This document shows, piece after piece, positions 187 through 60,997 of a stretch of 62,091 nt of DNA (the first letter of the stretch is position 1; the number at the start of each line of letters is the position of its first letter). The stretch is from a virus (taxonomy: Duplodnaviria > Caudoviricetes). The position numbers and the translations under genes are program-made. Below the pieces are notes generated by a model, which did no database searches, had not been told where the DNA came from, and saw nothing but the letters and a program-made list of their open reading frames with translations. Location of the stretch: positions 1 through 62,091 of the IMG/VR virus record IMGVR_UViG_3300031228_000005; one strand, given 5' to 3'.

Positions 187-240
187 GACCTCTCACTTTC
201 TGCACCGTTTCTGGAAACGTGTGCTGTGTTGGATACCCAC

Positions 241-250
241 AGTGTAACAC
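241..250 (-). promoter_or_regulatory. Extended -10 promoter (TGtTACACT) upstream of AAA ATPase
   Basis: GTGTTACACT on - strand; the same 10-mer recurs at 51982 and 55902 upstream of other - strand genes. Confidence 0.6.
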
Positions 251-270
251 ATCATGGGTCAGGTGATGAT

Positions 271-349
271 GAGCCGGGTGACTCACACAGTGCTAGGCCT
301 AGCACTCGGGGGGTAGTGCTCGGCCTAGCACCATGCGTTACATCCGGGG
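271..349. repeat. Imperfect ~75-bp intergenic direct repeat, copy 1 (copy 2 at 4155-4227)
   Basis: Shared GAGCCGGRTGACTCACACRGTGCTAGGYCTAGCAC ... CCTAGCACCATGCGTTACATCCGGGG. Confidence 0.85.
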
Positions 350-354
350 GTGGT

Positions 355-1119
355 TCAGTAGCCCTCCTCCTTCACTACCTCGGTCGGCTGACCGGGAGTG
401 GTGAGCGGAGTCGGGGTGTTTCCAGAAACCGGCACGGTCCTGCATCGCTTGTGCCCGTTCTCGGTCGACGTGGACTTGCCGTCCGGGCCGTTGATCACGG
501 TGACCAGAGCGTTGCCGACACAGCGCACGGTCTTGGTGCTCTGTGCTCCCTCGGTCTCGATCTCCTCGGGGATCAGGACGAACGTGGACTCACCCTCCGT
601 GGTGCCGGTCGGCGTGACGGTCGGCTCCTCGGCCACAGTCGGCGTCGGCTCCATGGGTACGGTCGGAGGAAGGGTCTTGGTCGGGCTGTCCGTGGGGTCC
701 TCCGTGGGGTCCTCCGTGGGGTCCTCAGTGGGGTCCTCGGTGGGTGCCACACAGTTCGGCGGGACACCCGTCGTACCTTCGGGGCAGACCTCCGACTCAG
801 CCTCGATCAGCGTGATGGTGTAGTGGCTGATGTCCTTACCGGACGGGTGACTGAACGTGATGGACGACACGGGGTCGACGTCCACGTAGTGGGGCCCGTC
901 GCCCTGGTTGGCGCTGCCAGCCTTGACGCAGTACCCCACGATGAGCAGCCCATCGGGCGCGTTGTAGGTGTGCGTCGGGCCGACAGCGTCGAACTGGTGA
1001 TCGCTCTGCGGCTGACAGACACCGTCGTTGGTGGTCAGGCTGACCGTGGCGTACACCACGGTCGGGCCGACGAGGGCCGTGAGGAAGGCCGCGATGAACG
1101 CGACGATCAGGGTCTTCAT
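355..1119 (-). CDS. Secreted Pro/Thr-rich protein with PTED repeats
   Basis: Signal-peptide-like N-terminus, Cys-containing domain (YCVKAGS...ISHY), (PTED)4 tandem repeat, RBS GAAAGGA. Confidence 0.85.
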   Translation of the reverse strand: MKTLIVAFIAAFLTALVGPTVVYATVSLTTNDGVCQPQSDHQFDAVGPTHTYNAPDGLLIVGYCVKAGSANQGDGPHYVDVDPVSSITFSHPSGKDISHYTITLIEAESEVCPEGTTGVPPNCVAPTEDPTEDPTEDPTEDPTDSPTKTLPPTVPMEPTPTVAEEPTVTPTGTTEGESTFVLIPEEIETEGAQSTKTVRCVGNALVTVINGPDGKSTSTENGHKRCRTVPVSGNTPTPLTTPGQPTEVVKEEGY

Positions 1120-1158
1120 GGATGTGTCCTTTCGATTGGAGCCGGGCGGCTCAGGCAG

Positions 1159-1212: not shown

Positions 1213-1229
1213 CACCTGTTCAGCCCGGA

Positions 1230-2069
1230 TCAGGCCTTGGCGGGCCGACGAACCGGGACGGCCCGGCGCACCGGCTTGGCGGCGACGGCCTGCTCGACAC
1301 CCTCGACCGCGCTCTCGACGGTCTCCTCGACCGACGCAGCCTTGACCGGCTTGGCCTTGGTGGTCGGCTTGGCCTTGGTCGCACCGGACTTCGGCGCGGG
1401 CTTGGCCTTGGTCGCGGAGGCGGTGGCCTTCTTCACCGTCTTCGGCTTGGCCGGTGCCTTCGGCGCGGGCTTCGGCTTCTTGGCCTGCACCCGAGCGGCG
1501 ACCTCCGTGGCGATGGCTCGCATGAACGCACGGTGCGCGGCCTCGTTGTCCTTGCCGAGCGAGTCGAGGATGGCGACGACCGCGCCGTCGATGCCCTTGG
1601 ACAGGAGCAGCAGGGCAGCCGACTCCGGGGTGCCCGCCGTCTTCGGCGCGGTGATGGACTCGACGGCCTTGTCAGCCGCGTCGTCCTCCTCGGCTTGCGC
1701 CTTGATCGTCTTGGTCAGGCGGGTCGCCTCGGCGTAGGCCTTGCTCAGGTTCGGGAAGGACGAGAGCACGAGCCCGTTGTTGCGCACGGCCACCGCGACG
1801 GTCTTGATCTTCGAGGCGTCGCCCTTGCGGGAGGTCCCGAGGATCGAGAGCACGGTGTTGTAGAACGACTCGCCGCTCACGTCGGTCGAGGACTCGGGCA
1901 GCCACTCCTCGATGCCGGTCACGGCACCCGACCAGAGCAGGTTGGATGCCTGCTTGCGGGCCTTGGTCGAGCGGTCGAGCAGGGTGGCGCTCTTGTTGAG
2001 GCTGTCCTGCCACGAGCCCTTCTCGAACGTGACGGGGGTGGTCTCGGTGGTGCTGTCGGTGTTCGACAT
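1230..2069 (-). CDS. Hypothetical protein with histone H1/HupB-like Lys-Ala-Pro C-terminal tail
   Basis: ATG 2069 with AGAAAGG RBS; tail KKPKPAPKAPAKPKTVKKATASATKAKPAPK. Confidence 0.85.
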   Translation of the reverse strand: MSNTDSTTETTPVTFEKGSWQDSLNKSATLLDRSTKARKQASNLLWSGAVTGIEEWLPESSTDVSGESFYNTVLSILGTSRKGDASKIKTVAVAVRNNGLVLSSFPNLSKAYAEATRLTKTIKAQAEEDDAADKAVESITAPKTAGTPESAALLLLSKGIDGAVVAILDSLGKDNEAAHRAFMRAIATEVAARVQAKKPKPAPKAPAKPKTVKKATASATKAKPAPKSGATKAKPTTKAKPVKAASVEETVESAVEGVEQAVAAKPVRRAVPVRRPAKA

Positions 2070-2430
2070 GGTGTGAACCTTTCTTGTTTCCGGAAACCGG
2101 GCGGTCCGGTTGTCTCGGGTTGGAGCCGAGTGGCCCAGTGAGGGGCTGGTGCTGGTGATCCAGCGCCAGCCCCTCAAGTGCGACTCGACCTACGGATACC
2201 GTATAACACTATGTGGCGCAGCGCAATACCTATCCGTGGTTGGGTTTGAGACGGTCCTTCTCACGAGCGTCGGCGCTCGCCGTGGTGTGGAGTTGAGCGA
2301 GCAGGGTGGCCGTCGTCGGCTCAGGTAGCCCTGCGCTATCAGTGCTAGGGCTAGCACCACAGCACCCGTCCTCATCGACATCACCGGACACCGAGACAGC
2401 GTCGGTGCCTGTGCCGTGCCAGTGCACGGC

Positions 2431-2897: not shown

Positions 2898-3701
2898 TCA
2901 GAACTCCTTCGTGTAGGTCATGGTCACAGCGAGCGTGTCGTAGCGCACGGACTCGGGCAGGTGCTCCATCGTGTCCTGCTCAACGGCAGCGGTAGCCAGT
3001 GCGGCCACGGCCACGGCAAGGTTGGCCCCCCGGTACATCCTGATCGCAACGGGAGGGTTGCTCAGGTCGCGAGACTGGATCGTCTGCGTCACGGTGTAGA
3101 TCATGCTTGTCCTTCTTCCTATCGGATGGTCGATCATGTGCTCAGCGGGGAACTCGGTTTCCGGAAACATCTCCACGAGCACGGCATCGGCGTTGTCCTC
3201 GCCGTACCACTCCTCGCACACGTCGTCGGCGGGAATCCAGTTGTTCTCGGTGTCCGGCAGGGCGTAGTCCCGGTACTCCTCGACCTCGCAGCGGTAGATG
3301 TCACCGTTCCACACGGCCTCAATCTCCCGTCGCCAGTCACCAGACGGGTCGCCGTCCCACGACAGCACGTAGAAGTCGGTGCCCCGGTCGAGCGAGACAT
3401 GGATGAAGTCCGCATCAGGGTTCTCCGTGAGCCGGACGGCCAGCCGCTTCATCGCACCCTCGGAACCGGGCAGGTTGTCCTGCTCCGTGGAGTAGGCCAC
3501 GGTGGCACGGCGTCCGTCCTCCTCGTCGCACCAGTCAGCGGAGCGGAGTCCTCGGAAGCCCTCGTCGTAGAAGGCGACGATGTCGGTGCCGTCCCAGTAG
3601 TAGCCCCACGAGTCGGAGTTGCCGACGTTATACATCCGGCCTCGGGTGATGATGGTGTGCCCGTTCACGTCGGTCACGGTGCTGTAGCGCCAGTCGTTCA
3701 T
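2898..3701 (-). CDS. Hypothetical acidic protein (possible internal start at 3104)
   Basis: 267-aa ORF with RBS; second RBS AGAAGGA before in-frame MIYTV. Confidence 0.7.
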   Translation of the reverse strand: MNDWRYSTVTDVNGHTIITRGRMYNVGNSDSWGYYWDGTDIVAFYDEGFRGLRSADWCDEEDGRRATVAYSTEQDNLPGSEGAMKRLAVRLTENPDADFIHVSLDRGTDFYVLSWDGDPSGDWRREIEAVWNGDIYRCEVEEYRDYALPDTENNWIPADDVCEEWYGEDNADAVLVEMFPETEFPAEHMIDHPIGRRTSMIYTVTQTIQSRDLSNPPVAIRMYRGANLAVAVAALATAAVEQDTMEHLPESVRYDTLAVTMTYTKEF

Positions 3702-4116: not shown

Positions 4117-4154
4117 GGGGGTTCTCCCTGAGGTTTCTGGAAACGGTTGGAATG

Positions 4155-5262: not shown

Positions 5263-5523
5263 CTACTTCACGGTCCTCTCAGGTTGTCTACTGGGTTTCT
5301 GGAAACCTCTACCGGTTGGTCGAGGGTCGATCGGAGTACGGCCTGCAACGGGGGCACCGGCAGTACGGGCCGTTGTGCTTCACGTTATCCAGCACGGTGC
5401 TATCACCTAGCACCGGAGGCATGGGCCTCTCGTCAAGGGGCCGCTCACCGAACGCGAGCATGAACAGGTACGCGCTCACGTCGTCGGCCCACTCCTGCAC
5501 CTCCGAGGCGGTGATCTTCCTGC

Positions 5524-6200: not shown

Positions 6201-6989
6201 TCAACTGCCTTGGGCTCGACCCCCCTCTACTGACTCCTGTTTCTGGAAACCACCGCAAGCCGTGACACGCCATAGACGTACGGCTTGAACGGCATCGCGT
6301 ATCGGCCCTCTTGTGTCACAGTCACCCGTAGGGATTGCTGGACGGTAGGTGTGTACGCCGCCGATCCGGTGCTCATCGGGACAGATCCCGCGCTCATCGC
6401 TGTGATCCCACCGTCTGGTCCCACTTCGGGTCGGTGAAGAAGTACGGGCTAGCCGCCCACGCCGACACCCTGCCGGTGCTGTCGCGCTGCATGGACGTGA
6501 GCGGTGCCGCAGTCGTACGCCGGACCGGACCGGTTGTGATCTGTGCCGTGTGAGGACGGAGCATCGGCACGTCGTTCGGCGTGCTACGGCTAGCACGGGC
6601 GGCAATGACGGAGCGGTTGTGAGACTTCCGCATCAGAGCACACCACCGATCGACAGGGCGATGATGGTTCCGTAGATGCCGGACAGAATCCCGATGACCA
6701 GACCGATCAGCAGGGCGAGGGTCTCGTCGCTCATCGTCCCCACCCGTTGCCCGAGTGGTAGCGCTCGGCGGAAGTCTGGTGCGGGATGCTGTCGGTCGCG
6801 TGCCTTGCCATGTTGTCGGCGTAGGCCGGAGCGTCATGCCTTGGGCAGACGCGGGTCTGCGGCTTGCACTCGCAGCCTGCCTGCGATGCCGGGTCGGTGT
6901 GCGATGCGTGGATGTGAGTGATGCGCTGGCGCTTGCCCATGACGGAGCCTTCCTGTCGGTTTCTGGAAACGGGGAGCCGGACGGCTCAC

Positions 6990-7537: not shown

Positions 7538-8530
7538 GTGGTTCGGACCCCGTTGGCCCGAACCACTAGAGCACTAGGCGAGACTGTCACTCTCGCCCGG
7601 TCACTCTGCTAGGGATGGCTACCGTTCGCGTACCGGGTCAAGTTCCGCCCGTCCGTTCCGCTATTAGGTTTCCGCCAGATGTTTCACGTTCCCTGCCCTA
7701 GCCCTTCCTTGATCCTTGCCTGTCGAGTCACGATGTGCGCCCGTTGCTAGCGGGCGACCGCTCTTACTTTCCGTTGTTCGGGCACGAGAGGAGCGCCCGC
7801 CATGGTCTGCCATGGTCTGCACTGTTGAGTTATCACGGCCTAGCGCGGCAGCCCTTGACGCTGCGTCGCTCCGATCCCGCCCGTAGGCGAGGCTTCCCGC
7901 GTTGCACGCGGGGTCCGGCTCCTTCCTGTCTGCGACTGGGGGCCGCTCCCGGTGACCCCGCTTGATCCGGGGCCACTGGTGAGAACACTACCCCCCGGTG
8001 CCCACTCGCGCCACCCGCGTTCAGGTACATGGAGTAACGAACTCTGGATGACTGCATTGGCCTTGTTTCCAGAAACCAAGGTGTGACACAGTATGGGGTC
8101 AAGGTGTGTTACAATTGAGGTGGCACACCACTACTCAGAATTGGGGAGACCCCCACCGTTTCCAGAAACATCTGGACAACAGGCCCCCACAAGCGCACAC
8201 TGGCTGTATGAGTGACCGGCTGCACGACCACCTGACCCTCGGCTTTCGCCGTGGGTGTGTGGCCTGCGCCCAACTAGAGGCGGACCTCGCGCTGGCGCAG
8301 CGGGCAGCGCACGCACATCAGTGACAAACCCCTGCTGTCTAGTTCTTCCGCCCGCATCACGTTGTGGTACCGTATACGTACCGAAAGGGGCGCGAGGCCA
8401 GCGCGACAAGTCTGGGTGAGCCAAGGGGTGGGGAAGCCCCGTGAGCCTTGCAATCCCGGCCCCGAGTAGGTTGCTGCGGCTACCCTCCCGACATGCTGTG
8501 TTACCGTACACGGCAAGATGAGGAGGTGGG
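7538..8530. other. ~1-kb divergent control region between the two arms, hairpin rich
   Basis: No credible long ORF; many hairpins; two 12-bp motifs (8065, 8158); TGtTACAAT at ~8106 and TGtTACCGT at 8499-8507. Confidence 0.7.
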
Positions 8531-8534: not shown

Positions 8535-8765
8535 ATGTCATGGCCGACAACCAACGACCCACGTACGGAGTTCGTCACGCTGAGGTTCACTGTGAACGAG
8601 GCTGCTGACATCGACTGGCTGATCGGTGTGACGAATGCGAAGAACAGGTCCGTGGCGGTGCGTGATGCCGTGGAGCGGGTGATCGCTGCCGAGAAGCGCA
8701 GGGCGCGGAAGGCACGCACTGCCGGGGGCTCTGCGCCGAGCGAGGGGCAGCACGACGATGACTAG
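8535..8765 (+). CDS. Ribbon-helix-helix DNA-binding protein
   Basis: RBS GAGGAGG; TEFVTLRFTVNEAADIDWL...NRSVAVRDAVERVI. Confidence 0.7.
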   Translation: MSWPTTNDPRTEFVTLRFTVNEAADIDWLIGVTNAKNRSVAVRDAVERVIAAEKRRARKARTAGGSAPSEGQHDDD

Positions 8766-8981: not shown

Positions 8982-9278
8982 ATGACTGAGGGCCACAAGC
9001 ACAGGCATGTCATGGTCCCGTCGTGGGACGTGTGGTACGTGCGCCTGCTGCGGGTGCAGTTGATCCACAGGCGTGACGTGGAGGCCGTGGACAAGAGTCC
9101 TTACCCGTACGGGATGTGCCGCGAGAAGTGCCCTCCGGGGTGTCAGGGCAGGCACGGGCCGTGCTACGCGCTGAGTCCGTTGGGTATCCTGCACAGGTGG
9201 ACTGGGCTGACGTTGGAGGTCCAGACCGAGGAGACGCTGGACTGCACGTATCTGGACACCGAGGGCTTGGAGGAGTGA
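8982..9278 (+). CDS. Hypothetical protein
   Basis: GGAGG RBS before MTEGHKH; abuts next gene. Confidence 0.5.
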   Translation: MTEGHKHRHVMVPSWDVWYVRLLRVQLIHRRDVEAVDKSPYPYGMCREKCPPGCQGRHGPCYALSPLGILHRWTGLTLEVQTEETLDCTYLDTEGLEE

Positions 9279-9991
9279 TGAGCGCCGCAGAGTACGAGGA
9301 TGAGTGGGACGACGAGGCCCTGCTGCCCGATGACCTGAAGAAGGGTAGGGCTGTGCCGCTTAAGCGGACGGCGAAACAGGAGGCAGCGGCCATCAAGGCG
9401 GCTGAGGAGCGCGCTGTCGCGACGGAACTGGCGAAGGCGCAGAGCGCCGCGCAGCAGCAGGCACAGCGCCTCGCGCAGATCGTGAACCTGCACATCGGGG
9501 GCTACTCGCTGGCGGACATCGGGGCGTCTATCGGGGCGACCGAGGCCGAGGTCGACCGGATGCTGGCGAACGAGACGCAGAGGTACGTGCGCAACCAGCC
9601 CGCCCTGCGAATCTACGTGCGCAACTACATCAGCGGGAAGTACAGCGAACTGCTGGAAGCCGTGTGGGACGGTGCTGTCGATCCGACGCACAAGGAGCAG
9701 TTGGAGCGGTTCGACCGGGCGCAGCGTGTGCTGGCGCAGATGGGCAGGCTCCACGGTGCGGAGGCCCCTGTGCAGTCCGAGGTCAAGGTCGAGGCCGCGC
9801 CCGAGGCCGTCGAGCGTCTGGTCAAGGCCCTGAGCACCGGGGCCGGGCTGGGCTACGACACCGACATCTTCGACGTGGAGTTCACGGAGGAGATGACCGA
9901 GGCTGTGCATGACGCTGTGGACCAGACACACAAGGCTCTAGAGGTTTCTGGAAACCGAGTCGAGGAGAGTGATGGGTATGACGAACTCTGA
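9278..9991 (+). CDS. HTH protein, probable terminase small subunit
   Basis: GYSLADIGASIGATEAEVDRML HTH; position upstream of TerL; GGAGGAG RBS. Confidence 0.6.
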   Translation: MSAAEYEDEWDDEALLPDDLKKGRAVPLKRTAKQEAAAIKAAEERAVATELAKAQSAAQQQAQRLAQIVNLHIGGYSLADIGASIGATEAEVDRMLANETQRYVRNQPALRIYVRNYISGKYSELLEAVWDGAVDPTHKEQLERFDRAQRVLAQMGRLHGAEAPVQSEVKVEAAPEAVERLVKALSTGAGLGYDTDIFDVEFTEEMTEAVHDAVDQTHKALEVSGNRVEESDGYDEL

Positions 9992-12302: not shown

Positions 12303-12304
12303 TG

Positions 12305-12313
12305 TGTTACCGT
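12305..12313 (+). promoter_or_regulatory. Extended -10 promoter, probably leaderless transcript
   Basis: TGtTACCGT ending 8 nt before ATG 12322. Confidence 0.55.
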
Positions 12314-50809: not shown

Positions 50810-51026
50810 GCGCTTCTCCTATCGGTAGTTTCTGGAAACGGTGTTGGATGGGCGGGACTGCGGGAGCAGGTACATCGCGGTTCTCGTCTAAGGCAGGTCG
50901 TGGGCCACCTTGGTGTACGCCGCTATGGATGTCCTTCACCACGAGGTAGTCATGACGCGCCCACATTCGCATGGCGTTGACTCCCGCAGTCCAAGTCTCT
51001 TGAGTTGTGAAGCCGGTGTTGTGGCA

Positions 51027-51857: not shown

Positions 51858-51981
51858 GTGCTGGTCCTGCTTTCTTGTGAGGTTTCACGAGGTGTCCCGG
51901 TTGGGACGGTTGAGGGTTCAATGCGTGCCCAGTTGGGCGTTTCCAGAAACCTATCCGCTATATGACTGGCTTCCGGGGTCC

Positions 51982-51991
51982 AGTGTAACAC
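51982..51991 (-). promoter_or_regulatory. Extended -10 promoter for SSB
   Basis: GTGTTACACT on - strand. Confidence 0.6.
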
Positions 51992-51992
51992 A

Positions 51993-52229
51993 CTATGCGA
52001 ATGGATCATGGTGCATCCCAGCCTGCTCGATCAGGAATGCCTTGAGAGTGGGGCGTGGGTTGGCTAGTGCATACTCCTCCATCTCTGTCTGGTATCCGAG
52101 GGCGACAGCCTCGCGGTCGTTGAGCCATACCGTCTCCGCTGCGAACAACAGGTCGCAGATGTGCTCGCGCCACCAGTTGTAGCCGATGCGTCTGCCCCGC
52201 TTGTCGCGTCGTACCGGACGGTCAGGCAT
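51993..52229 (-). CDS. Hypothetical protein
   Basis: GGAGGAG RBS before MPDRPVRR. Confidence 0.6.
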   Translation of the reverse strand: MPDRPVRRDKRGRRIGYNWWREHICDLLFAAETVWLNDREAVALGYQTEMEEYALANPRPTLKAFLIEQAGMHHDPFA

Positions 52230-52738: not shown

Positions 52739-53299
52739 TCAGTCGTCCAGATCGAACTCGGAGAGTAGGTCGTCCCACTCGTCCTCGGGTACGGCGGGGG
52801 TTCCCCGCTCGAACTGCTCCTCGGGTGTGAGCCCCAACCGAGGGGGCAGTATCACCTCAGCGGTGCACTCCTCGCAGAGCGTGGCACTGTCGTCGGCATC
52901 CAGTTCAAGACCACAGCCCTCGCAATCGTGGAGCCCCGACACTTCCTCCTCGGGCTCAGCCTCCTGTTTCTGGAAACCCCGAGCCGGTGTGCCGCACTCC
53001 TCACCCGTGGCCCAGCCCTTCTCGTCCACGTGGGTGTAGTGCAGGTCGCCGTCCACATCGAACGGCCATGCCAGACACTCCACGATGGGACGGCCACAGC
53101 CACCACACTCGAACTCCTCGCCGTAGTGGCAGGCACACGGGCAGGGGGTGAACACCTTCTTGGGGTTGGCTCTGCTGCCTCCCCCGTTGCGGGCACACCT
53201 GTCGTGGCTGGACTGCGGATCGCTGGTCACCGGGAACGAACAGTGCCCCGATGGGATGAGCGCGCCGATGGGCTCGGCTACTACCTGTGTCTCAGTCAT
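52739..53299 (-). CDS. Cys-rich zinc-binding protein
   Basis: CPCACH, CGGC, CEGC...CEEC. Confidence 0.7.
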   Translation of the reverse strand: MTETQVVAEPIGALIPSGHCSFPVTSDPQSSHDRCARNGGGSRANPKKVFTPCPCACHYGEEFECGGCGRPIVECLAWPFDVDGDLHYTHVDEKGWATGEECGTPARGFQKQEAEPEEEVSGLHDCEGCGLELDADDSATLCEECTAEVILPPRLGLTPEEQFERGTPAVPEDEWDDLLSEFDLDD

Positions 53300-53562: not shown

Positions 53563-53828
53563 GACTGGGGCTCCCGCTTCAACTCGTTGCGACGCCTGAG
53601 GTTGGCCTTGTTCGCGTCGCCTGCCCCATAGGTCTCCTCCTCCTCGTGGGTCATGACGAACAACGCCAGTCTCAACCGACGGGCCTCGTCATCCAGAGCC
53701 GTCACCTTGAGTTGCTTGCGGCGGTACTGCTGTTCGTAGTCACGCGCGTCAGCCTCGGCGTCGTTCTGCCTGCGCAGCACGACGTCCAGTTCTTCCTCCA
53801 TGCGCTCGGTCAGGTTCTTCTCGCTCAT
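53559..53828 (-). CDS. Coiled-coil hypothetical protein
   Basis: MSEKNLTERM; ATGA coupling. Confidence 0.65.
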   Translation of the reverse strand: MSEKNLTERMEEELDVVLRRQNDAEADARDYEQQYRRKQLKVTALDDEARRLRLALFVMTHEEEETYGAGDANKANLRRRNELKREPQS

Positions 53829-55855
53829 GCTTCCTCCTCGATGTCGAACATGGCCTCGGGCGGCTTGCCCTCCCAAGTCTTGCGGCGGTCACCCTCGGGT
53901 GCGATGACCGGGACCTTGTCGGGCTTGATGACCAGCGACTCGATCTGCGGGTAGACCTCCTTGCCCAGCACCTTCTCTGCCACGGTGGGACTGACCAGCG
54001 TGGGGTTGGTCCACAACTGGGTTAGCGTCTCGTCAGGCAGGGCAACACGCCCCTCCTCCACGGTGAGGGCGGGATCGAGTCGGTTGATGGCGTCACCCTT
54101 CCACGTACGACGCGGGGTGTAGTTGACCAACTGGTAGCCGGGCACGGACCCGCCCCGGTGCAGTCGGCGCTGCGCCTCGGCCTTGAGGTCCTTGTAGATG
54201 CTGTGCAGACCAGCGACCATGGTGAGCAGTTCGCCCAACTTGTCGTCCGGCAGTAGCGTGGTTTCTGGAAACGCACCCGGACCATCGGTGAACTCGGCGT
54301 CCACGATGGTGTCGAACAGACCCGCCGCCGACTCCACCCGCTGCTCAGTCAGTGCAGGGCACGAGCCACGAGCCGGGCACCACTGGCAGGCCAACTCACT
54401 CGGCTCGAAGGTGGCCCCCTCGTGTTGCCCGTACAGAGCCTTGGTCAGGGCCGGGGCCAGCACCTCGTCCCGCCACGTGAGCAGGTCGTCGATGGTCTCG
54501 GTCCACGTCTTGATGCCACCGAGCCGGGGCTGGATGATGTGGTAGACCACGTCCTCCACCCACATTGGAAGTTCGCCGGTCTCCTCGTCAGCCAGCAGTT
54601 CCAGCATGGCGAGCGCGTAGAGGCGGATCTGTGGGTTCTCATCCACGTCCACATCCTTGCCCTCGCCGTACTTGAGGTCGCCCACCACGAGCGACTTGGT
54701 CTCGGGGGTGCCGCCCTTGACGGGCAGACCCACGAAGTCAGCCGATCCACGCACGACGTAGACCTCACCCTCGTGCATGTCGGTGAGCGGGATGCCCGCC
54801 TCGCCACGTGACTCGATCAGGATGTGATCGTTGCCCCGCTCCTGTGCGTAGGACTTCACGAGGTCGACGTACTCCGCGACGTACTCTGCCATCTCGTCGT
54901 CGTACGCCTCACCCTCATCCTCGGGCAGGACGGACAACTCCATGAGCGTGTACTCGACCTCCTCGGCTGAGACACGACCTAGCACCATGTTCGCCTCGAC
55001 CTCGCCCACCGCGTGAGCCGTGGTCCCTTGCCGCGCAGCCGTGGTGCCGGATGCGAACGCCCGCTGCTGGTTGGGCGAGAGGGTTTCCAGAAACTCCCGG
55101 CTCAGGCTCAGGCTCATGGTGCAGTTCATCCAGCGCTCGGCACCGGACGGGCCAGCACCAGCGTGGTTGTCAAAGACGTAGTCCTTGACACCGGGGATAC
55201 CGAGGAACAGCGGAGGCGGGGTGGCTTCCTCACGGGCAGCCGCCATCTCCGCGAACATCTGCTCGGGGTCGAGCACGTCGCTGTCCACACCGGCATCATG
55301 CAACACCTCCTCGACCACGGCAACGGGAGCGCCATCGAGTTCGGTCAGCAGTCGCTCGATCTCGTCCGGGTGGTCAGCCTCGAAGCCTGCGTCCTCCCGC
55401 TCGTCGTACCCCTGCGGGACGAACGAGTGCGGCGGGTCAACCCTGTCGTGGGCCGACTCCTCGGTTCCGCACTTGCACGCGGGGTCGTCGTAGACCACAC
55501 CGTCAGGCAGTTCCTCCTCATCGAGGATGTCAAACATGGACTCACCCATCGGCTCGAAGGGGTTGGCGTAGTCCTCCTCGTCGGCCATGATGTCGAGGTC
55601 GTTGCGAACTTCAGGCTCCGCCTCGATGCGCTCGGTGTCGTCAGCGTCGTCGGGCTCGGGGCGCTCCTCTGCCTCACGAGCCAGCCGCTCCTCGCACACC
55701 ATGTCGATGAGGTCGGGCCACGAGACCTGAGCCCATGCCTCGGGGTCGGACTCGTAGCCGTGCGTGTTCACGAGTTCCTTGATCAGGTTCTTCTTGCTCA
55801 TGCCACCGGGCGCGGTGGGGTGAGCGTCGGGGTAAGCCGGATTCTGGCTGGTCAT
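53825..55855 (-). CDS. Cas4-like PD-(D/E)XK exonuclease (DUF2800-like) with long acidic N-terminal extension
   Basis: GPSGAERWMNC, GTTAH, GSAD, DLKYG, QIRLYA, CQWCPARGSC. Confidence 0.85.
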   Translation of the reverse strand: MTSQNPAYPDAHPTAPGGMSKKNLIKELVNTHGYESDPEAWAQVSWPDLIDMVCEERLAREAEERPEPDDADDTERIEAEPEVRNDLDIMADEEDYANPFEPMGESMFDILDEEELPDGVVYDDPACKCGTEESAHDRVDPPHSFVPQGYDEREDAGFEADHPDEIERLLTELDGAPVAVVEEVLHDAGVDSDVLDPEQMFAEMAAAREEATPPPLFLGIPGVKDYVFDNHAGAGPSGAERWMNCTMSLSLSREFLETLSPNQQRAFASGTTAARQGTTAHAVGEVEANMVLGRVSAEEVEYTLMELSVLPEDEGEAYDDEMAEYVAEYVDLVKSYAQERGNDHILIESRGEAGIPLTDMHEGEVYVVRGSADFVGLPVKGGTPETKSLVVGDLKYGEGKDVDVDENPQIRLYALAMLELLADEETGELPMWVEDVVYHIIQPRLGGIKTWTETIDDLLTWRDEVLAPALTKALYGQHEGATFEPSELACQWCPARGSCPALTEQRVESAAGLFDTIVDAEFTDGPGAFPETTLLPDDKLGELLTMVAGLHSIYKDLKAEAQRRLHRGGSVPGYQLVNYTPRRTWKGDAINRLDPALTVEEGRVALPDETLTQLWTNPTLVSPTVAEKVLGKEVYPQIESLVIKPDKVPVIAPEGDRRKTWEGKPPEAMFDIEEEA

Positions 55856-55901
55856 GTTGGACCTGTCCTGTCTGTGTTGGAACGGAAGCGTCACACCTCA
55901 T

Positions 55902-55919: not shown

Positions 55920-56309
55920 CTAGTCGTCCTGCCCGTTCAGGTTGTGCCCGACACACGGGCCGAACCCTTGAGCCACACTGGCAGCACAGGCCAGCATGAC
56001 CATGAACCCCTCGACATCGGCAGTGAACCCCCCGCATCCGCCAGCCGCCAGCACACGCCCGACGAACAGCCGCTGCTTGACGGTCGGCCCCTTGAGCAGG
56101 GCCTTCTCGACGGACTTGCCGTAGGTCTCGGGTGCCTTCACCTCGTTAGCGATGAACACACCATCGAGCACGCACAGCAGGTCGGACACACCGGCCTCCC
56201 CGAACTGCGAGCCGTGGTACTTCACGGTCACGAGCCGGTCGCCGTACTTGTCACGGCCAGCGTCGCGCTGCTTCTTGATCAGTTTGGTCTCGGGTCCTTC
56301 GCGTCCCAC
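55920..56309 (-). CDS. VRR-NUC / Holliday junction resolvase-like nuclease
   Basis: ET, K.HGS..AGVSDL, NEVK, Q..F. Confidence 0.8.
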   Translation of the reverse strand: MGREGPETKLIKKQRDAGRDKYGDRLVTVKYHGSQFGEAGVSDLLCVLDGVFIANEVKAPETYGKSVEKALLKGPTVKQRLFVGRVLAAGGCGGFTADVEGFMVMLACAASVAQGFGPCVGHNLNGQDD

Positions 56310-56494
56310 TACAGATCATCCTCCTCGAAGCATTCAGGGAGAGGCTTGTCCTGCTCCCACTTGGGTCCGGTCTTCCTTCCGGGGTTTCCAGAAACGGTGC
56401 TACGCCTAGCACGGCGTACAGCCCAGCCGATGATCAGGAAGATCACAGCCCATTCGATCAGACCGATGACCACCGGGCCGGTGAGCCCCTCCAT
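56309..56494 (-). CDS. Small membrane protein
   Basis: TM helix after MEGLTG. Confidence 0.55.
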   Translation of the reverse strand: MEGLTGPVVIGLIEWAVIFLIIGWAVRRARRSTVSGNPGRKTGPKWEQDKPLPECFEEDDL

Positions 56495-56495
56495 G

Positions 56496-56894
56496 TCACT
56501 CGTGCCACGGGCCGAAGTGACCAGACAGGACCATGTTGATTGCGACCGCCGTCTCGGAGTAGGTCTCCACGTTGACACCACGGGTGTACTCGTAGAAGGT
56601 CTCCGGGTCGCAGAGCGTCATGCTGATCGGCTCCCAGATGGCACCGTCCGACAGCACCACCCAAGCATGCCCGATAGCCACGGGCTCCGGTCCCTGCCAC
56701 ATGCCGTGGACCAGAGTGACCGGGGTCGGGAGACCCAGATACTCGATCTGCTCAGCCTTGTCCGGCCAGTCGGTGAATGCCCAAGCCGCGAGTTCGTAGC
56801 AGTGGGTCAGTCGTTCCCTGAGTACCGGCTTGTCGTCGGCCCCTGCATAGTCGAAGACGCACCGAGCACCCATCGAGAGCAGTACGTCGTTCAT
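56496..56894 (-). CDS. Hypothetical protein
   Basis: CYE...LVHG...GHAWV motif. Confidence 0.65.
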   Translation of the reverse strand: MNDVLLSMGARCVFDYAGADDKPVLRERLTHCYELAAWAFTDWPDKAEQIEYLGLPTPVTLVHGMWQGPEPVAIGHAWVVLSDGAIWEPISMTLCDPETFYEYTRGVNVETYSETAVAINMVLSGHFGPWHE

Positions 56895-57358
56895 CACAGC
56901 ACCCACTCCGCGAGGGAGAACGAGATGATTGCCACGATCAGCGCCACGAAGGCGAGACCACAGCACCACAGTGCTACTACCTCCCAGTCGACGCGCTGCC
57001 AGATCGTCGGCTTGGGCAGTCCGCCGTATCCCCGTCGAATCTCTCGCCGCTTGAGTGTGATCTTGAGACGGCGCGGCACCCAGCGCCACCACCACGGGCG
57101 AGGCTTGAACCGGGCCCCACCCGTGAGCAAGGCGAGCAGGTTGGGGTCGACATCAGACAGGCACATGTCCAGTGTGTACGTGTTCCTGATTCTGTCCCAC
57201 CCCTCGATGACTAGATCCTCGTCAGGGTCCGGGTGGATGTTCAGCGACACGGCGGTGCTGTCGAGCGTCAGCCCTTCCCCGATGGGGTTGCCCTGCTCAT
57301 CGAGTCGCCACACGGTGATCCCGTTTCCAGAAACCGTGATCTTCGGTTCGTCAGTCAT
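56894..57358 (-). CDS. Tail-tube-protein-like fragment fused to C-terminal TM helix
   Basis: ITVWRLDEQGNP and YTLDMCLSDVDPNLLALLTG match the major tail IRVTRLDSCGDP and YTADIALCGVDPGLISLLTG. Confidence 0.65.
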   Translation of the reverse strand: MTDEPKITVSGNGITVWRLDEQGNPIGEGLTLDSTAVSLNIHPDPDEDLVIEGWDRIRNTYTLDMCLSDVDPNLLALLTGGARFKPRPWWWRWVPRRLKITLKRREIRRGYGGLPKPTIWQRVDWEVVALWCCGLAFVALIVAIISFSLAEWVL

Positions 57359-57815: not shown

Positions 57816-57993
57816 GGCTCGCACCTCCCACTCGGCAGAGCGTGGCCCGCGCACCACGTGTCATCGCAGTAGTACCAGCCCTCGTCGTAGTCCATGTCCT
57901 CGTCCTCGAACACAGTGGCCTCGTCCAACTCGGTGTCCTCGCCGTCGAGGTCCGCCCCGTGCTGTGCCTTGAGGTTCGCGTCGTAGTCCCTCA

Positions 57994-58266
57994 TCACACA
58001 CTCGCCTTGATGCGGTTCTCGCGCTCGGGTGCGTCGTACACCAGCACGAGGTTGCGGTACCTGAGCATGTGCTCCCACGTCTTGCCGTTGCCCCCGCCAG
58101 TGGAGTGCCACAGCCTGTCATCGAACCTGCGCTGCCACGCCTGACCGAAGGGGCCGTTGATCAGCACGATACTGCCGGGGTGCGGCTCGAACAGTTCAGC
58201 GGTGGGGAGTATGCATCGGGCTCGGTCGTCGGTCATGGGGATCAGGCGGCTGTTCATGGTGGTCAT
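57994..58266 (-). CDS. Hypothetical protein
   Basis: ORF in - strand operon. Confidence 0.6.
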   Translation of the reverse strand: MTTMNSRLIPMTDDRARCILPTAELFEPHPGSIVLINGPFGQAWQRRFDDRLWHSTGGGNGKTWEHMLRYRNLVLVYDAPERENRIKASV

Positions 58267-58335
58267 CTCTTGTCTCTCGTCTCTGTGTGGTGGGGTGTGA
58301 CGGGGATGCGGGTCGAAGACACCCCCGCCACACGT

Positions 58336-58593
58336 TCAGGTGGGGTCGGGCAGGCTCCGAAGAACCCGCTCGACCAGTTCGGGCTGATCGGTTTGGAAGC
58401 CGAGCAACAGGGCCGTCATGTCCAGCACTGCTTTGTTGTGCGCCCGCTTCTGGTCATTGCCCCCGTCCGTCAGCATGTCGGCTGCCAGATACAGCAGGCC
58501 CGTCGCCGGGATCGTGGTAGCCACAGCCCGGAGCAGGATCGCGAAGTCGCTGATCCTCGCGGGCTCCGGGTTTCCAGAAACTGCGCCGCTCAT
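58336..58593 (-). CDS. Hypothetical protein
   Basis: ATGA overlap with VWA stop. Confidence 0.6.
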   Translation of the reverse strand: MSGAVSGNPEPARISDFAILLRAVATTIPATGLLYLAADMLTDGGNDQKRAHNKAVLDMTALLLGFQTDQPELVERVLRSLPDPT

Positions 58594-60665
58594 AGCAGTG
58601 CCCTCGCCGCTTCGTCCCACACCTGCTCGGGGTGCTTCGCGTTGTAGCGCAGCACCTTGGAGGTACCCCGCTGGATCACGCAACCCCGCAGGATCTCGGG
58701 GAGGTTCGAGCCCCGGTCGGTGTAGTCGTGCGGTGCGACCGTGACCATGTTGACCCCGGCTGCCATCGCCTGACTGATCCTCGGACCCGAGTGCCGGGCG
58801 CCGAACAACTGCCAGTCGGTGAACTGCACCAGCAGGCGGTGCTCCGGTCGCTCCCCGATGTCGAAGAAGCCGGGCATCTGCTCCTCCACCAGATCGAGGG
58901 CCTCGGCCATGGCGCTCGTGCCCTCGGCGCACGGCACCTCGCGGATACCGGGGAGCGTCTGCCCGTTCTTCTGGATCACCCGAGCGTCGTTGCCCCAGTG
59001 GATCAGCGTCGACTCCAACTGCTGGCCTCGACCCGCGAAGTTGCGCAGGTCCAGAGCCGCGCTCGCCAGCGCCCAAGACAGCAGGGCACTCGGCTTCTGC
59101 AACTCGTTCATCGAGGACGACACATCCACGAGGATGGCGACCTTGACCGGAGGACTGGACTCGACCTCGCGGCGGGTGCGCTTGAAGAACCTCGGCTCAC
59201 GTGTTCCGCCGTCTGCCTTCCACGCGGCCAGCGCAGCGGCATCGACCGTCGCGCTCGGTGACTCGGACAGGGACACCACGCTCGTCTCCGTGGGGGAGAT
59301 GAGGTCGCGAAGGAATCGCTCGGCACCCTTCTGGATGTTGCGCTCCTCCTTGGTCGGGGCACGCCAGCCGCCACCCCTGTTGCCCTCGCCGCCAGCACCA
59401 CCGGACAGGCCACCCGTCTCCATCGGGGGAGTCTTGGCCTCCTCGTCCTTGGCCTCACCCTTGGCGTCGAACTTGGACCGGGCCTCCATCTCAGCCAGTT
59501 CCGCAGCCAGTTCCTCATCAGCCTCGGAGGGCTCGGTGCTATCGCTAGCACCGTCCTCATCCTCGCCCCCCTCGCTGTCCTCAGAGCCGTCTCCCGGCTC
59601 CTCGTCCTCGGGCTGGCCCTCTGCCCCACCGGACTCCTGCTCGGCGCTCTCGCCCCCCTCCTCGCCAGCCTCAGCCTCTGCGTCGAGGGTGCACTCATCG
59701 AACTCACACCCGGAGTTGGGCTGGGGCATGTCGTCGGCATCGGTTTCTGGAAACAGCAGGGCCAGCACGTCGCGAGCGTGGTCGATCATGGTTGACCCCT
59801 TGTCATCCTCGCACCGGAGCATGGCGATGAGCAGGTCCATGACGTGCTTGGTGTCGGCGTGTGCGTCACCGAGGACTCCGAGACCACCATCGTCCCGTTC
59901 AGACATGTGCTTCACCAGCGTCATGTGAAGCAGGGTCGTGAAGTCCTGCACCCAGTCACGCGGGGTGTGGCTGTTGTCGTGTGCGAACACCGCGATCTGT
60001 CGCCCGGCTCGCAGTGCCCACGAGGTGATCAGGTCCATGATCTTCTGGTTGGCATCGGTGATGGTGAGCACCGTGGTCGGGATCAGGTGGGCCGCGCTCG
60101 CACGCATGGTCCAGTCCAGCCCAGCCGCGCCGATCTTCGCAGCGTCGCGAGCCTGCAACCCCTCGATGCGCGGCTCCTCCATCATCCGGGCCAGTGCGAT
60201 GATCGCCTTGGTCGGCACGGCCCCGTCGCTGTGACGGGCGGGCGTGACCCTCGCCTGCTCGGCGGTGCGGGGCAGCCAGTGCGAGTGCCGTGCGTGGCCC
60301 GCCTCGTGCAACATGCACCCGGTGAGCACCGCCTCCTGCCGCAGCCGGAACGGGGTCACCGTGTTGAGCACCCGGTGCGGGTTGAGGATCAGCGACTCGT
60401 GGAACGTGAAGGTCCGGGTCGTGTGGTCCACGTCCGCGAACGGGCTGGCGCTGGGGGTGCCGAACACCAGCGTGGCGTCGGACCAGCCACTCCACTCGCG
60501 GATCTTCTTGTTCAGTGCTCGGATCGCGTCACCGGAAATCTGCACTGGCTGTACCTCGACAGGCGCGGGCTTCTCAGGTGCAGCCGGGGTGGTGCTAGGC
60601 GTAGCACCGGCTGCCTTGGTGGACGGGGTGCCGAGTGCGTTGGAGACATCTTGCTTGAGACCCAT
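58590..60665 (-). CDS. VWA-domain protein (CobT-like) with HExxH motif
   Basis: HEAGH...EEPRIE, acidic linker, MIDAS DVSSSM, GT, QFTD. Confidence 0.85.
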   Translation of the reverse strand: MGLKQDVSNALGTPSTKAAGATPSTTPAAPEKPAPVEVQPVQISGDAIRALNKKIREWSGWSDATLVFGTPSASPFADVDHTTRTFTFHESLILNPHRVLNTVTPFRLRQEAVLTGCMLHEAGHARHSHWLPRTAEQARVTPARHSDGAVPTKAIIALARMMEEPRIEGLQARDAAKIGAAGLDWTMRASAAHLIPTTVLTITDANQKIMDLITSWALRAGRQIAVFAHDNSHTPRDWVQDFTTLLHMTLVKHMSERDDGGLGVLGDAHADTKHVMDLLIAMLRCEDDKGSTMIDHARDVLALLFPETDADDMPQPNSGCEFDECTLDAEAEAGEEGGESAEQESGGAEGQPEDEEPGDGSEDSEGGEDEDGASDSTEPSEADEELAAELAEMEARSKFDAKGEAKDEEAKTPPMETGGLSGGAGGEGNRGGGWRAPTKEERNIQKGAERFLRDLISPTETSVVSLSESPSATVDAAALAAWKADGGTREPRFFKRTRREVESSPPVKVAILVDVSSSMNELQKPSALLSWALASAALDLRNFAGRGQQLESTLIHWGNDARVIQKNGQTLPGIREVPCAEGTSAMAEALDLVEEQMPGFFDIGERPEHRLLVQFTDWQLFGARHSGPRISQAMAAGVNMVTVAPHDYTDRGSNLPEILRGCVIQRGTSKVLRYNAKHPEQVWDEAARALL

Positions 60666-60697
60666 GGCGAGCCTCCTCTCTGTTGGATGGAGTGGTG

Positions 60698-60997
60698 CTA
60701 CTGGTTTCTGGAAACCTCGGTCTGTCTGAGGATCGCGGCGATCTGAACGATCGCGTTGTAGTCGTCGCCAAAGTCGTCATCGAACAAGGCCCTCATCCGC
60801 TCGATGCTCTGCTCGAAGGTGAGCGGTGCGGGTGGGGGCTCGACCTCGAAGTAGATGGTGTCCGGGAACAGGGTCGCGGACTTGGCTACGTGCTCGGCTG
60901 TCCACACATCCACGCTGTCACCCATCTGATCGATGCAGAGCACACCGTTCTCGTCGGTCGCGGCGTAGTAGAACGTCATCAGATGTTCCTCTCCCAT
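60698..60997 (-). CDS. Hypothetical protein
   Basis: ORF between AAA and VWA genes. Confidence 0.55.
   Translation of the reverse strand: MGEEHLMTFYYAATDENGVLCIDQMGDSVDVWTAEHVAKSATLFPDTIYFEVEPPPAPLTFEQSIERMRALFDDDFGDDYNAIVQIAAILRQTEVSRNQ

Follow-up and report, generated by a model that had tools for sequence, protein, structure and literature searches.

An evenly spaced, genome-wide array of a 12-bp dyad motif in an uncultivated phage and its relatives

Here we report that the virus record IMGVR_UViG_3300031228_000005 of IMG/VR (Caudoviricetes) carries 50 perfect copies of a 12-bp motif, GTTTCYRGAAAC, in which the inverted half-sites GTTTC and GAAAC flank a centre of 2 bp. The record is a single contig of 62,091 bases with 64% G + C, was analysed in its entirety (hereafter the window), and is the whole genome of an apparently lytic, actinophage-like phage. 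The copies are probably, though not securely, places on double-stranded DNA to which a sequence-specific dimeric protein of two-fold symmetry, encoded by the phage, binds; the lead candidate for it is a small putative ribbon-helix-helix (RHH) protein. That a symmetric protein binds the duplex is more credible than that RHH is its specific reader. The array is a striking new form of the known but unexplained dyad-repeat arrays of lytic actinobacteriophages, and what is new is its density, its even spacing, its embedding in genes and its all-or-none conservation.

The first copy lies at positions 207-218 and the last at 60704-60715, and 100 dinucleotide-preserving shuffles of the window contained 0.00 copies on average (largest 0). 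All ten arm positions were invariant in 50/50 copies and only the centre varied (TG 27, CA 21, CG 2, TA 0); at the arm positions, the window held no one-mismatch copies and nine two-mismatch copies. The pentamers GTTTC and GAAAC occur 68 and 62 times, respectively, in the whole window. Beyond the 12 bases nothing was conserved except a weak G preceding each half (G 54%, T 11%), and the complementarity of the flanks was no greater than predicted by this preference. Gaps between copies averaged 1235 bp (range 93-3198 bp) with a coefficient of variation (CV) of 0.44-0.45. None of 20,000 random placements was as even as the observed spacing (lowest simulated CV 0.62), and the largest gap was smaller than in 99.75% of them. 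Such even spacing over the genome fits a role that involves the whole chromosome.

Gene models were crude and built on third-position G + C (approximately 75-82 genes in the window); they place 35/50 copies (70%) wholly within coding sequences. When synonymous codons were shuffled 500 times with proteins and codon usage kept, the mean number of in-gene copies was 0.138 and the largest 2, against the 35 observed. Every occurrence of the peptides VSGN (14/14), VSRN (5/5), FPET (8/8) and FLET (3/3) in the proteome is encoded via the motif, so that these peptides owe their existence to the DNA word and not the reverse; all six cases of FQK or FWK also contain the motif core. The codons that the motif imposes are rare in the window (TCT 100 vs TCC 330, TTT 40 vs TTC 530, AAA 33 vs AAG 713, GTT 125 vs GTC 598). 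Across the phages described below, VSGN in frame 0 is written with the rare TCT-GGA in 44 cases and with the commoner TCC-GGA in 6, and because the peptide is identical, the centre itself is under choice at the DNA level. These data support selection on DNA rather than on peptides. A preliminary description, made from the letters of the window alone, had already listed 50 copies with the same numbers of each centre, assigned about two thirds of them to open reading frames (ORFs), noted their rare codons, and suggested selection on DNA; the recount was identical, the gene fraction agrees, and neither kind of shuffle approached the observed numbers.

The motif is not confined to the window. Relatives in IMG/VR were found via a capsid-protein search, an exact 14-mer scan and a search with an alignment of RHH proteins, and comprise at least the contigs named here; the 12-mer is present at 0.57-0.87 per kb in no fewer than seven further phage contigs. 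The capsid-protein search yielded G002 (complete, 63,954 bp, 48 copies) and a fragment with 6 copies, and the 14-mer scan at least G003 (60,930 bp, 53 copies), G004 (49,370 bp, 37 copies), G005 (41,160 bp, 29 copies) and six dense fragments. The RHH alignment recovered G413 (14.0 kb, 10 copies and one 13-mer), G414 (30.6 kb, 24 copies) and G415 (64,945 bp with terminal repeats, 37 copies). In G002-G005, the density was 0.70-0.87 per kb and the spacing CV 0.33-0.50, and the five related genomes (window and G002-G005) held 0-2 one-mismatch copies each vs 29-53 perfect ones.

Window and G002 are syntenic, with 71% identity across 37.5 kb of alignments. Among window copies that fall in blastn alignments, 22/27 stand at the same place in G002 by a strict comparison and 24/27 if offsets of 1 nt are allowed, and all aligned G002 copies (24/24) are matched in the window. 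The corresponding same-place values, at about 70% nucleotide identity, are 22/23 for G003, 13/15 for G004 and 5/7 for G005. By simple arithmetic, a neutral 12-mer at 71% identity would survive in approximately 1.6% of cases. The copy at 13798 is perfect while its flanks barely align, and at homologous sites the centre switches among TG, CA and CG. For the copies at 17325 and 54261, the G002 sequence has 5-6 different bases and no indel, which indicates gain or loss via plain substitution. This comparison of sequences argues for purifying selection on the sites one by one, and hence for the reading given at the outset. The preliminary description had expected positions to turn over among relatives; they are mostly kept instead. 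Its alternative of an adapter or assembly artefact is excluded because independent contigs from several IMG/VR source datasets carry in-frame copies in conserved genes at homologous places.

Placement and orientation were compared over the 217 copies of the five related genomes. According to the crude models, 136/217 copies are in genes and 81/217 are intergenic, with non-coding sequence making up only about 8-15% of each genome. Nineteen of the 59 intergenic copies whose downstream gene is clear precede the start codon by 14-22 nt, which places them after the preceding stop, ahead of the ribosome site and just 5' of the Shine-Dalgarno run; in the window, 6/10 intergenic copies of this class do so, at 14, 17, 17, 18, 18 and 18 nt. 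Read on the coding strand, the 59 copies are GTTTCCAGAAAC (CA) in 39 cases vs GTTTCTGGAAAC (TG) in 15, and the 25 copies lying 10-30 nt upstream of starts include 20 GUUUCCAGAAAC (CA) vs 3 GUUUCUGGAAAC (TG), counts that use crude gene starts and homologous sites that are not independent. The lack of orientation bias claimed in the preliminary description thus fails for start-proximal intergenic copies. Within genes, orientation tracks the reading frame (frame 0: TG 44, CA 19, CG 6; frame 1: CA 16, TG 8; frame 2: CA 19, TG 18), as expected if the less harmful peptide were chosen. The terminase and capsid genes, which are the two most constrained large genes, hold no copies and are bracketed by them.

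The position of these copies just ahead of ribosome sites and their CA bias, together with the Cluster EG repeats found at the same distance from starts (PMC7302621), would suit a signal at the mRNA level, i.e. a start-associated element that sets translation or marks intercistronic processing sites. Such a signal is very unlikely to be the basis of the array. The majority of copies are in genes, many of them mid-gene and in either orientation according to frame. RNA folding of three intergenic copies yielded 0 to -0.7 kcal/mol, which is not better than shuffles (one coding copy folds at -10 kcal/mol, solely through its flanks), and dyad symmetry is useless in RNA without pairing. Placement near starts also follows from intergenic gaps of approximately 30 nt, and the bias in orientation may reflect no more than the need to keep a GGA run from arising upstream of the true ribosome site. 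Two-fold symmetry without a stable RNA fold instead points to a dimeric protein on double-stranded DNA. The dimeric protein proposed in the preliminary description therefore gains from the symmetry, the weak RNA fold and the even spacing; the coating, looping, protection or positioning of the phage chromosome that it also proposed may be roles of such a protein. No ParB_N domain was found in the window and three complete relatives (0/4).

The preliminary description had also called the system undescribed, but dyad arrays of this kind are in print (the comparisons made here draw on parts of the cited papers). Cluster O mycobacteriophages carry a 17-bp dyad repeat, 5'-TGTTCGGNNNCCGAACA, with function given as unknown, of which phage Corndog has 34 perfect and 3 one-off copies (Cresawn et al. 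2015, PMC4351075). Like the window's array, that of Cluster O has more than 30 copies, spread over a genome of roughly 70 kb, with invariant arms and a variable asymmetric centre, and about a third of them lie in coding sequence; the Cluster O phages are likewise non-temperate, dimeric binding is predicted, most sites lie away from promoters, and glycosyltransferase and O-methyltransferase genes are present in both phages, for which virion glycosylation has been suggested in Cluster O (PMC4351075). They differ in the spacer of Cluster O (3 bp), in its density (0.5 per kb vs 0.8 in the window), in gene content, which is unrelated, and in distribution, the Cluster O copies being denser towards one genome end whereas those of the window are even; the sections on the repeat report no orientation bias, and the window is biased near starts (PMC4351075).

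Cluster EG Microbacterium phages carry 8-10 copies of an 18-bp inverted repeat, 5'-GATCAACCNNGGTTGATC, whose function is likewise given as unknown (Jacobs-Sera et al. 2020, PMC7302621). This repeat also consists of two inverted half-sites 2 bp apart, lies in short intergenic gaps 14-22 bp before starts, and is kept though its flanks diverge, in phages that lack an integrase and a repressor (PMC7302621) and have the same genome layout as the window. However, the Cluster EG repeats are found only in the leftward genes of the right end, all but one of them associated with starts (PMC7302621), whereas the window has a shorter motif of other sequence in five-fold copy number, with its 50 copies spread evenly over the genome and 70% of them in genes.

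The stoperators of Cluster A phages (13-14 bp) are similar in that dozens of short sites in and between genes are all read by one phage protein, but they are asymmetric, follow the direction of transcription and occur in temperate phages that have an immunity repressor (PMC4351075). The site of the window is symmetric and oriented by its 2-bp centre only, and integrase and resolvase domains (PF00589 and PF00239) were each found in 0/5 complete genomes (window and four relatives). No repressor was recognised in the window phage or its relatives, which is not a strict test. The KorA and KorB sites of plasmid RK2 are far fewer than the 50 copies of the window, and a KorA or KorB relative was not identified in the window phage. 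The KorA operator OA of RK2 contains GTTTAGCTAAAC, a 12-bp palindrome of the form GTTT-N4-AAAC bound by a small dimeric repressor, and the KorA/KorB operators are scattered across this mobile element of about 60 kb, where they act in long-range silencing with a sliding clamp (PMC11790492). By analogy, this example shows that a small dimeric repressor may read such a palindrome and that dispersed sites can silence a whole replicon; RK2 differs in being a plasmid of Gram-negative bacteria with all its sites at or near promoters (PMC11790492).

Family searches on 60 window proteins gave few DNA-binding matches, and the RHH pattern of the lead candidate was exposed by aligning core families. The candidate is a protein of 76 aa (8535-8765, plus strand) whose gene is the first conserved one in the rightward operon. 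Pfam RHH_1 (PF01402) is on record for four of its 71 homologues, and its orthologue in G003 scores above the RHH_1 cut-off (20.7 vs 20.5 bits). An AlphaFold2 model (pLDDT 83.6) has an extended N-terminus followed by two helices, and the best Foldseek rows for it are RHH domains, namely those of NikR (probability 0.97 and 0.95; root-mean-square deviation 1.1-1.5 Å), ParD, PrpA and ArtA. Among 54 RHH sequences (52-79% identity), the N-terminal arm and the strand are most conserved; T15 and R17 are invariant and T19 is present in at least 90%, and these three are the presumed DNA-facing residues of the strand. RHH dimers can read a short palindrome through their beta-ribbon.

Sites also gather near the gene. 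In the window, the copies at 8065-8076 and 8158-8169 form the closest pair of the genome (93 bp) and lie in a divergent non-coding region 458 and 365 bp, respectively, upstream of the RHH gene. In 5/7 genomes (window, G002, G005, G413 and G415; not G003 and G414), the copies that stand closest together, as a pair or a cluster, are upstream of this gene, and a copy stands 33-42 bp before the RHH start in G005, G414 and G415. All three contigs found via the RHH alignment are dense in the 12-mer (10, 24 and 37 copies), which is weak evidence as they are kin. In phages OneinaGillian and Kithara, the syntenic small proteins (gp14, annotated as RHH, and gp15, respectively) have other strand residues and the phages other dyad motifs; on these sequences, this fits a reader whose strand residues co-vary with the motif, in three cases only. 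As the reader of the motif, the RHH protein itself is a tentative choice that we would not expect to prove right in most comparable cases. A second, weaker candidate is a conserved protein of 174 aa (45484-46011, minus strand), which matches helix-turn-helix (HTH) families at E 0.002-0.009, under their cut-offs, and has 148 homologues; the best fold match of its model had an E-value of 0.17 and a TM-score of about 0.2. The T5orf172/MUG113 nuclease-like gene (50130-50516) and the DUF3039 gene (50513-50809) were considered as partners and are unlikely to be so, because neither is conserved in any relative.

Four genomes each have 4-5 matches to a promoter-like word of the extended -10 type, GTGTGnTAYnnT, nearly all of them intergenic, and 13/18 of these matches lie within 60 bp of a motif copy; the word was derived from motif-adjacent sequence in the window. 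On the plus strand of the window, GTGTGTTACAAT (8104-8115) stands between the motif copies at 8065 and 8158, and GTGTGCTACATT (20153-20164) directly follows a motif, 20 nt before the capsid start at 20185. On the minus strand, GTGTGTTACACT (51982-51993) reads leftward to the copy at 51939. Further matches to the pattern are at 2198-2209 and 12302-12313. The capsid arrangement is the same in G002 and G003, the motif abutting the word in all three genomes with the copy at roughly -30 to -19. In G415, two units of motif and promoter-like element, 51 bp apart, lie upstream of the RHH gene. A related word, TGTG(T/G)TAC(C/G)GT, precedes the RHH gene in most relatives.

We infer binding by RHH, and the effect of such binding, from the statistics and conservation of the motif, selection at the DNA level, the predicted RHH fold and the placement of sites near the gene. 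The two-stranded beta-ribbon of an RHH dimer would enter the major groove across the dyad and read GTTTC on each half, with the centre required only as pyrimidine-purine. Copies that abut promoter-like elements (at the capsid gene and, in some relatives, the RHH gene) would set transcription initiation, including autoregulation. Through those that recur each 1.2 kb or so, in genes as well as between them, the protein would be able to cover the chromosome in full, as a roadblock or by bridging or spreading. We propose that the loss of any single copy would leave a gap, and that even spacing and the lack of decayed copies would follow from this. All 50 copies together would then constitute a genome-wide operator-like array of the Cluster EG and Cluster O kind, expanded into genes and evenly spread.

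Several observations weigh against this proposal. The window's own RHH protein falls below Pfam RHH_1 and has no Pfam match, and none of the fold matches of its model is stronger than E 0.3. The copy nearest to the RHH start is 231-365 bp away in the window, G002 and G003. The co-occurrence of RHH and motif is confounded by common descent, and the association of the promoter-like word with the motif is partly circular because the word was derived from copies adjoining the motif. The 35/50 copies in genes are far from any promoter-like element, and the operators of regulators are usually degenerate, whereas 0/50 copies are so here. The last set of objections comes from a second lineage, represented by G006 (complete, 58,059 bp, terminal repeats), which has only four proteins in common with the window: the single-strand binding protein (SSB), the DUF2800 nuclease, a CobS-like and a CobT-like protein. 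G006 carries 17 copies of the 12-mer (CG 7, CA 5, TG 4, TA 1) and has the 11-mer GTTTC-N-GAAAC in 24 places; one would not expect a rigid dimer to tolerate centres of 1 bp as well as 2 bp. Neither G006 nor G409, which has the same mix of 11-mers and 12-mers, yielded a relative of the RHH protein or the HTH candidate by tblastn, jackhmmer, hidden Markov models (HMMs), hhalign or regular expression. Either another protein would thus read the half-site there, or RHH would not be the reader, which might be one of the common proteins or host-derived. A search for binders in G006 gave at best 5% with hhalign of four small core families and E 0.27 with RHH-, HTH- and TerS-like HMMs, and Pfam matched none on 20 G006 proteins. 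In G006, the 11-mers are found mostly among rightward genes of non-structural (replication) type, and the 12-mers among the structural genes of the leftward block (loci L136-L138); taken together with a single parS, they are spaced at 1.4 kb with a CV of 0.60.

That parS bears on the proposal that a host DNA-binding protein, ParB or another nucleoid protein, is hijacked via decoy or loading sites with parS-like halves, which we regard as improbable. The outer five bases of each motif half are those of parS of Mycobacterium smegmatis, GTTTCACGTGAAAC, of which that bacterium has three sites, and the dyad symmetry is the same (PMC7022226). G006 and G409 each carry exactly one canonical GTTTCACGTGAAAC, at 4936 and 7594, respectively, beside their 11-mers and 12-mers. 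A shared host factor would predict the same half-site in two lineages with only four common proteins, and ParB_N (PF02195) had no matches in the window, G002, G003 and G006, and one sub-threshold match (13.6 bits) in G004. Against the proposal, the centre of parS measures 4 bp and its sites are few and close to the origin (PMC7022226), whereas the centre of the phage motif is fixed at 2 bp in 217/217 copies, and the 50 of the window are spread evenly. The equal half-sites and 2-bp spacer noted in the preliminary description thus both hold. The base before the halves is predominantly G, vs T in TGTTTCAC, and neither canonical parS nor the form with a 4-bp centre, TGTTNCACGTGAAACA (a 16-bp palindrome), occurs in the window or G002-G005.

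A related proposal, doubtful but somewhat better placed, is that the motif is a barcode by which the virus sets its own DNA apart: a protein would load or nucleate at the evenly spaced copies and from there spread or slide over the phage chromosome only. This protein could be phage-encoded or, in view of the parS-like halves and the single parS in G006 and G409, a hijacked ParB-like clamp of the host. If this were true, distinguishing phage DNA in this way would serve to protect it from nucleases, to package it selectively or to time transcription across the genome, and a half-site with 1-bp or 2-bp centres would have been adopted by at least two lineages with only four common proteins.

The strictness of the motif also invites comparison with enzymes, whose recognition sites the copies might be: a specific nick or cut might be made at them, or they might work as a Chi-like signal, restraining the exonuclease of the phage itself (PD-(D/E)XK, DUF2800) and supplying the gp2.5-like annealing protein, so that the motif marks phage DNA as self and motif-free host DNA is degraded. 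Fifty perfect copies and no one-mismatch copy are the pattern of a strict enzyme, the even spacing of about 1.2 kb would suit a processive one, and the proteins common to window and G006 are precisely the DUF2800 nuclease, the gp2.5-like SSB, the CobS-like AAA_5 and the CobT-like VWA protein. Motif-poor host DNA would also agree: among 401 genomes of one phylum, each had 0-4 copies and 91 had at least one. These genomes were drawn evenly from the phylum of an Acidimicrobiales metagenome-assembled genome, reached via the DUF3039 protein, and may not include the phage's host; the tally includes four unpublished genomes (G026, G128, G344 and G351 with 1, 1, 1 and 2 copies, respectively). The 12-mer is not a host chromosomal motif in the 401 sampled genomes, where a comparison with Chi-like or uptake-sequence-like tags found no chromosomal enrichment, and the motif is symmetric rather than oriented. 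The known Chi-type signals have no symmetry and are recognised on a single strand, whereas a palindromic site speaks for a symmetric dimer that binds the duplex. In the sources searched, DUF2800 has no recorded sequence specificity, the T5orf172/MUG113 nuclease-like gene is not conserved in relatives, and an enzyme leaves the clustering of copies upstream of the RHH gene and at promoter-like elements unexplained. On balance, an enzyme site is an unlikely explanation.

The copies could finally be sites for priming or replication initiation by a Prim-Pol and a helicase-like ATPase, spaced as Okazaki fragments, the palindrome serving either strand. The spacing of about 1.2 kb would agree with this, the phage encodes both a Prim-Pol (PF09250, E 4e-28) and an AAA_25 ATPase, and G414 has a tandem iteron-like array of four copies, 34, 34 and 47 bp apart (L263:1345-1471), each unit of which also has a GTTTCC half-site. 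The array of G414 may be an origin or a nucleation centre; no motif-bearing tandem array was found in the window. However, known primases read 3-nt words, and we know of no precedent for a 12-nt site requirement. A relative of the Prim-Pol was not found in G006 by tblastn and jackhmmer. We give a priming role very little credence, and the binding of a phage-encoded dimeric protein to duplex DNA remains the reading that we prefer.

The individual copies of the window are distributed as follows, with relatives that have a copy at the same place named in brackets. In the left part, 207-218 (centre TG) is in non-coding sequence or a doubtful ORF (G003), 418-429 (CA) in a hypothetical gene at 355-1119(-), 2086-2097 (CG) in a conserved hypothetical gene at 1230-2177(-) (G002, where the centre is TG, and G003), and 3157-3168 (CG) in a hypothetical gene at 2898-3701(-). 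The copy at 4133-4144 (G005) is approximately 16 nt 5' of a minus-strand ATG with a Shine-Dalgarno-like run recognised by eye, those at 5295-5306 and 6239-6250 (both TG) are in regions of doubtful ORFs, and 6959-6970 stands 18 nt before the start of a small ORF at 6731-6940(-).

To the right of the RHH gene, 9944-9955, which encodes VSGN, is near the 3' end of the small-terminase-like gene 9116-9991(+) (G003), and 12521-12532 is in the glycosyltransferase gene 12465-13370(+) (G002, G003). The portal gene 13735-15681(+) has a copy in its N-terminal part at 13798-13809 (G002, G003, G004) and another at 15238-15249 (G003, G005; absent from G002). The gene for an 830-aa head protein with a NUDIX domain, 15678-18170(+), contains 15902-15913 (G004), 16383-16394 (G002, G003, G004) and 17325-17336, the last of which is found in the window only, being absent from G002 (6 differences in 12, no indel), G003 and G004. 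The copy at 18959-18970 is in the gene 18326-19156(+) (G002, G003). Around the capsid gene, 20141-20152 abuts the promoter-like element (G002, G003) and 22113-22124 is intergenic past the gene, 59 nt before the gene starting at 22184 (G002, G003, G004). Three copies are found shortly before genes: 24102-24113, 17 nt before the start of the gene at 24131 (G002); 24864-24875, 14 nt before that of the gene at 24890 (G002, with the centre flipped to TG); and 26161-26172, which begins with the G that ends the stop codon of the gene 24890-26161(+), 18 nt before the gene at 26191 (G002). The gene 24890-26161(+) itself contains 25721-25732. Further copies are at 28390-28401, in codons 7-11 of the gene 28370-28873(+) (G002), and at 29807-29818, intergenic and 48 nt before the gene at 29867 (G002, G003, G004). 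The tape measure gene 30546-34373(+) holds 31062-31073 and, near its 3' end, 34260-34271 (G002, G003, G004). The minor tail gene 35671-38802(+) is preceded at 17 nt by 35642-35653 (G002, G003) and contains 37510-37521 (G002).

In the leftward genes that follow, 39212-39223 is near the 3' end of the gene 39189-39893(-) (G002, G003; absent from G004), 40536-40547 at the 5' end of a small gene at 40332-40556(-), 41857-41868 in the gene 41499-42059(-) (G002, G003), and 43085-43096 in the glycosyltransferase gene 42500-43273(-) (G002, G004). The copy at 44577-44588 is at or just upstream of the 5' end of the AAA_25 ATPase gene 43553-44596(-) (G002, G003, G004), and 45604-45615 is in the gene of the HTH candidate. 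The SNF2 helicase gene 46182-47765(-) contains 46467-46478 (G002, with a CG centre, G003, G004, G005) and has 47792-47803 at 26 nt upstream of its start (G005). Two copies are in the DNA polymerase A gene 47948-50146(-), at 48454-48465 (G002, G003, G004, G005) and 49858-49869 (G002, G003, G004). The copy at 50828-50839 stands 18 nt before the start of the DUF3039 gene, which is on the minus strand, and 51939-51950 stands 81 nt upstream of the gp2.5-like SSB gene and downstream of the promoter-like element, whereas 52966-52977 is inside the gene 52739-53299(-). In the DUF2800/PD-(D/E)XK nuclease gene 53825-55894(-), 54261-54272 is shared with G003 and G004 and absent from G002 and G005 with no indel, and 55083-55094 with G002, G003 and G004 and absent from G005. 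The remaining copies are 56384-56395 in a weak ORF at 56309-56581(-), 57323-57334 close to the 5' end of gene 56894-57358(-), 58570-58581 just downstream of the CobT-like gene in sequence that the crude models treat as non-coding, 59743-59754 in the CobT-like VWA gene 58590-60665(-) (G002, G003), and the terminal copy at the 3' end of the gene 60698-60997(-).

By the crude models, the genes of the window run leftward at 1-7.5 kb, rightward at 8.1-39.2 kb and leftward at 39.2-62.1 kb. The rightward block encodes the large terminase (Terminase_6N/6C), the portal, the NUDIX-domain head protein, the major capsid, the tape measure and tail proteins. The leftward block encodes the replication and DNA proteins (DNA polymerase A, SNF2 helicase, Prim-Pol, AAA_25 ATPase and the gp2.5-like SSB) as well as the DUF2800/PD-(D/E)XK nuclease and the CobS-like AAA_5 and CobT-like VWA proteins. 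The genes of the latter two (61116-61955(-) for the CobS-like ATPase) form a pair that is also present in G006, and the CobS-like ATPase is the best-conserved non-structural protein, with 76-79% identity in relatives. The two glycosyltransferase genes are accompanied by one for a TylF-like O-methyltransferase (40553-41245(-)); one of these genes lies between terminase and portal. The same glycosyltransferase/O-methyltransferase gene set is described for Cluster O phages (PMC4351075). The contigs of window and G002 are circularly permuted, with window 24.8 kb aligning to G002 0.6 kb, as could result if terminally redundant or permuted genomes were assembled as circles; the terminal repeats of G006 and G415 are direct repeats according to IMG/VR.

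Among named phages, Curtobacterium phage Kithara and the Microbacterium phages of Cluster EG, OneinaGillian for example, come closest, with only structural genes in common with the window, at 25-41% identity; the terminase, portal, capsid and tail proteins of OneinaGillian are 28-41% identical, and the terminase of Kithara is the best match (40%). At the nucleotide level, none of 50,697 phage records matched 20 kb of the window by megablast, tblastn of the RHH protein against the same collection found nothing, and tblastn of the CobS-like ATPase gave matches only at 26-32% identity, so that, judged by these searches, the collection appears to hold no cultured member of the phage family. Kithara (PQ868964.1; L001, L008) has no copies of the 12-mer and is thus not a bearer of the motif. 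It has 13 perfect copies (15 with at most two mismatches) of a 16-bp perfect palindrome, GTTCAGTGCACTGAAC, mostly between leftward genes of the right arm, where an RNA hairpin of -8.9 kcal/mol is possible; no paper on this palindrome was found, and no dedicated search was made. Neither 12-mer was found in a phage context in the literature searched, in which the matches were unrelated.

Short palindromes other than the motif were also counted. The tetranucleotide AGCT is absent from the window (0 vs 173 +/- 12 in shuffles), G003 and G005, occurs once in G002 and 71 times of 155 expected in G004, and is normal in G006; its absence suggests that an AluI-type restriction site is avoided altogether, which would predict an AluI-like system in the host and could be of use in finding it. 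CTAG is under-represented in every genome compared (0.42-0.80). Avoidance of restriction was considered as the cause of the CA or TG centre and not adopted. CCGG is not avoided (493 vs 502 expected), and TCCGGA is low in the window (9 vs 19 expected) and G005 (0 vs 7) and not in G003 (34 vs 32), counts that are suggestive only. Genomes poor in TCCGGA are also poor in copies with a CG centre, and the CA or TG centre may therefore partly reflect avoidance of a palindromic hexamer.

Dyad-repeat arrays have been in print since 2015 (Cluster O; PMC4351075) and 2020 (Cluster EG; PMC7302621), in accounts whose relevant parts assign them neither a function nor a binding protein. The family of the window has the most extreme dyad array that we found, with a perfect copy approximately every 1.2 kb, placed in genes at the cost of rare codons. 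The copies are dense, conserved at about 70% identity and essentially without decayed versions, a pattern which implies that each single site matters. Simple promoter control fails to explain this all-or-none conservation and the even spacing, which suggest a process that covers the whole chromosome. With a 76-aa RHH protein to be set against a 12-bp duplex, and a second lineage in G006, the function of such an array would be directly testable even though the phages are uncultivated.

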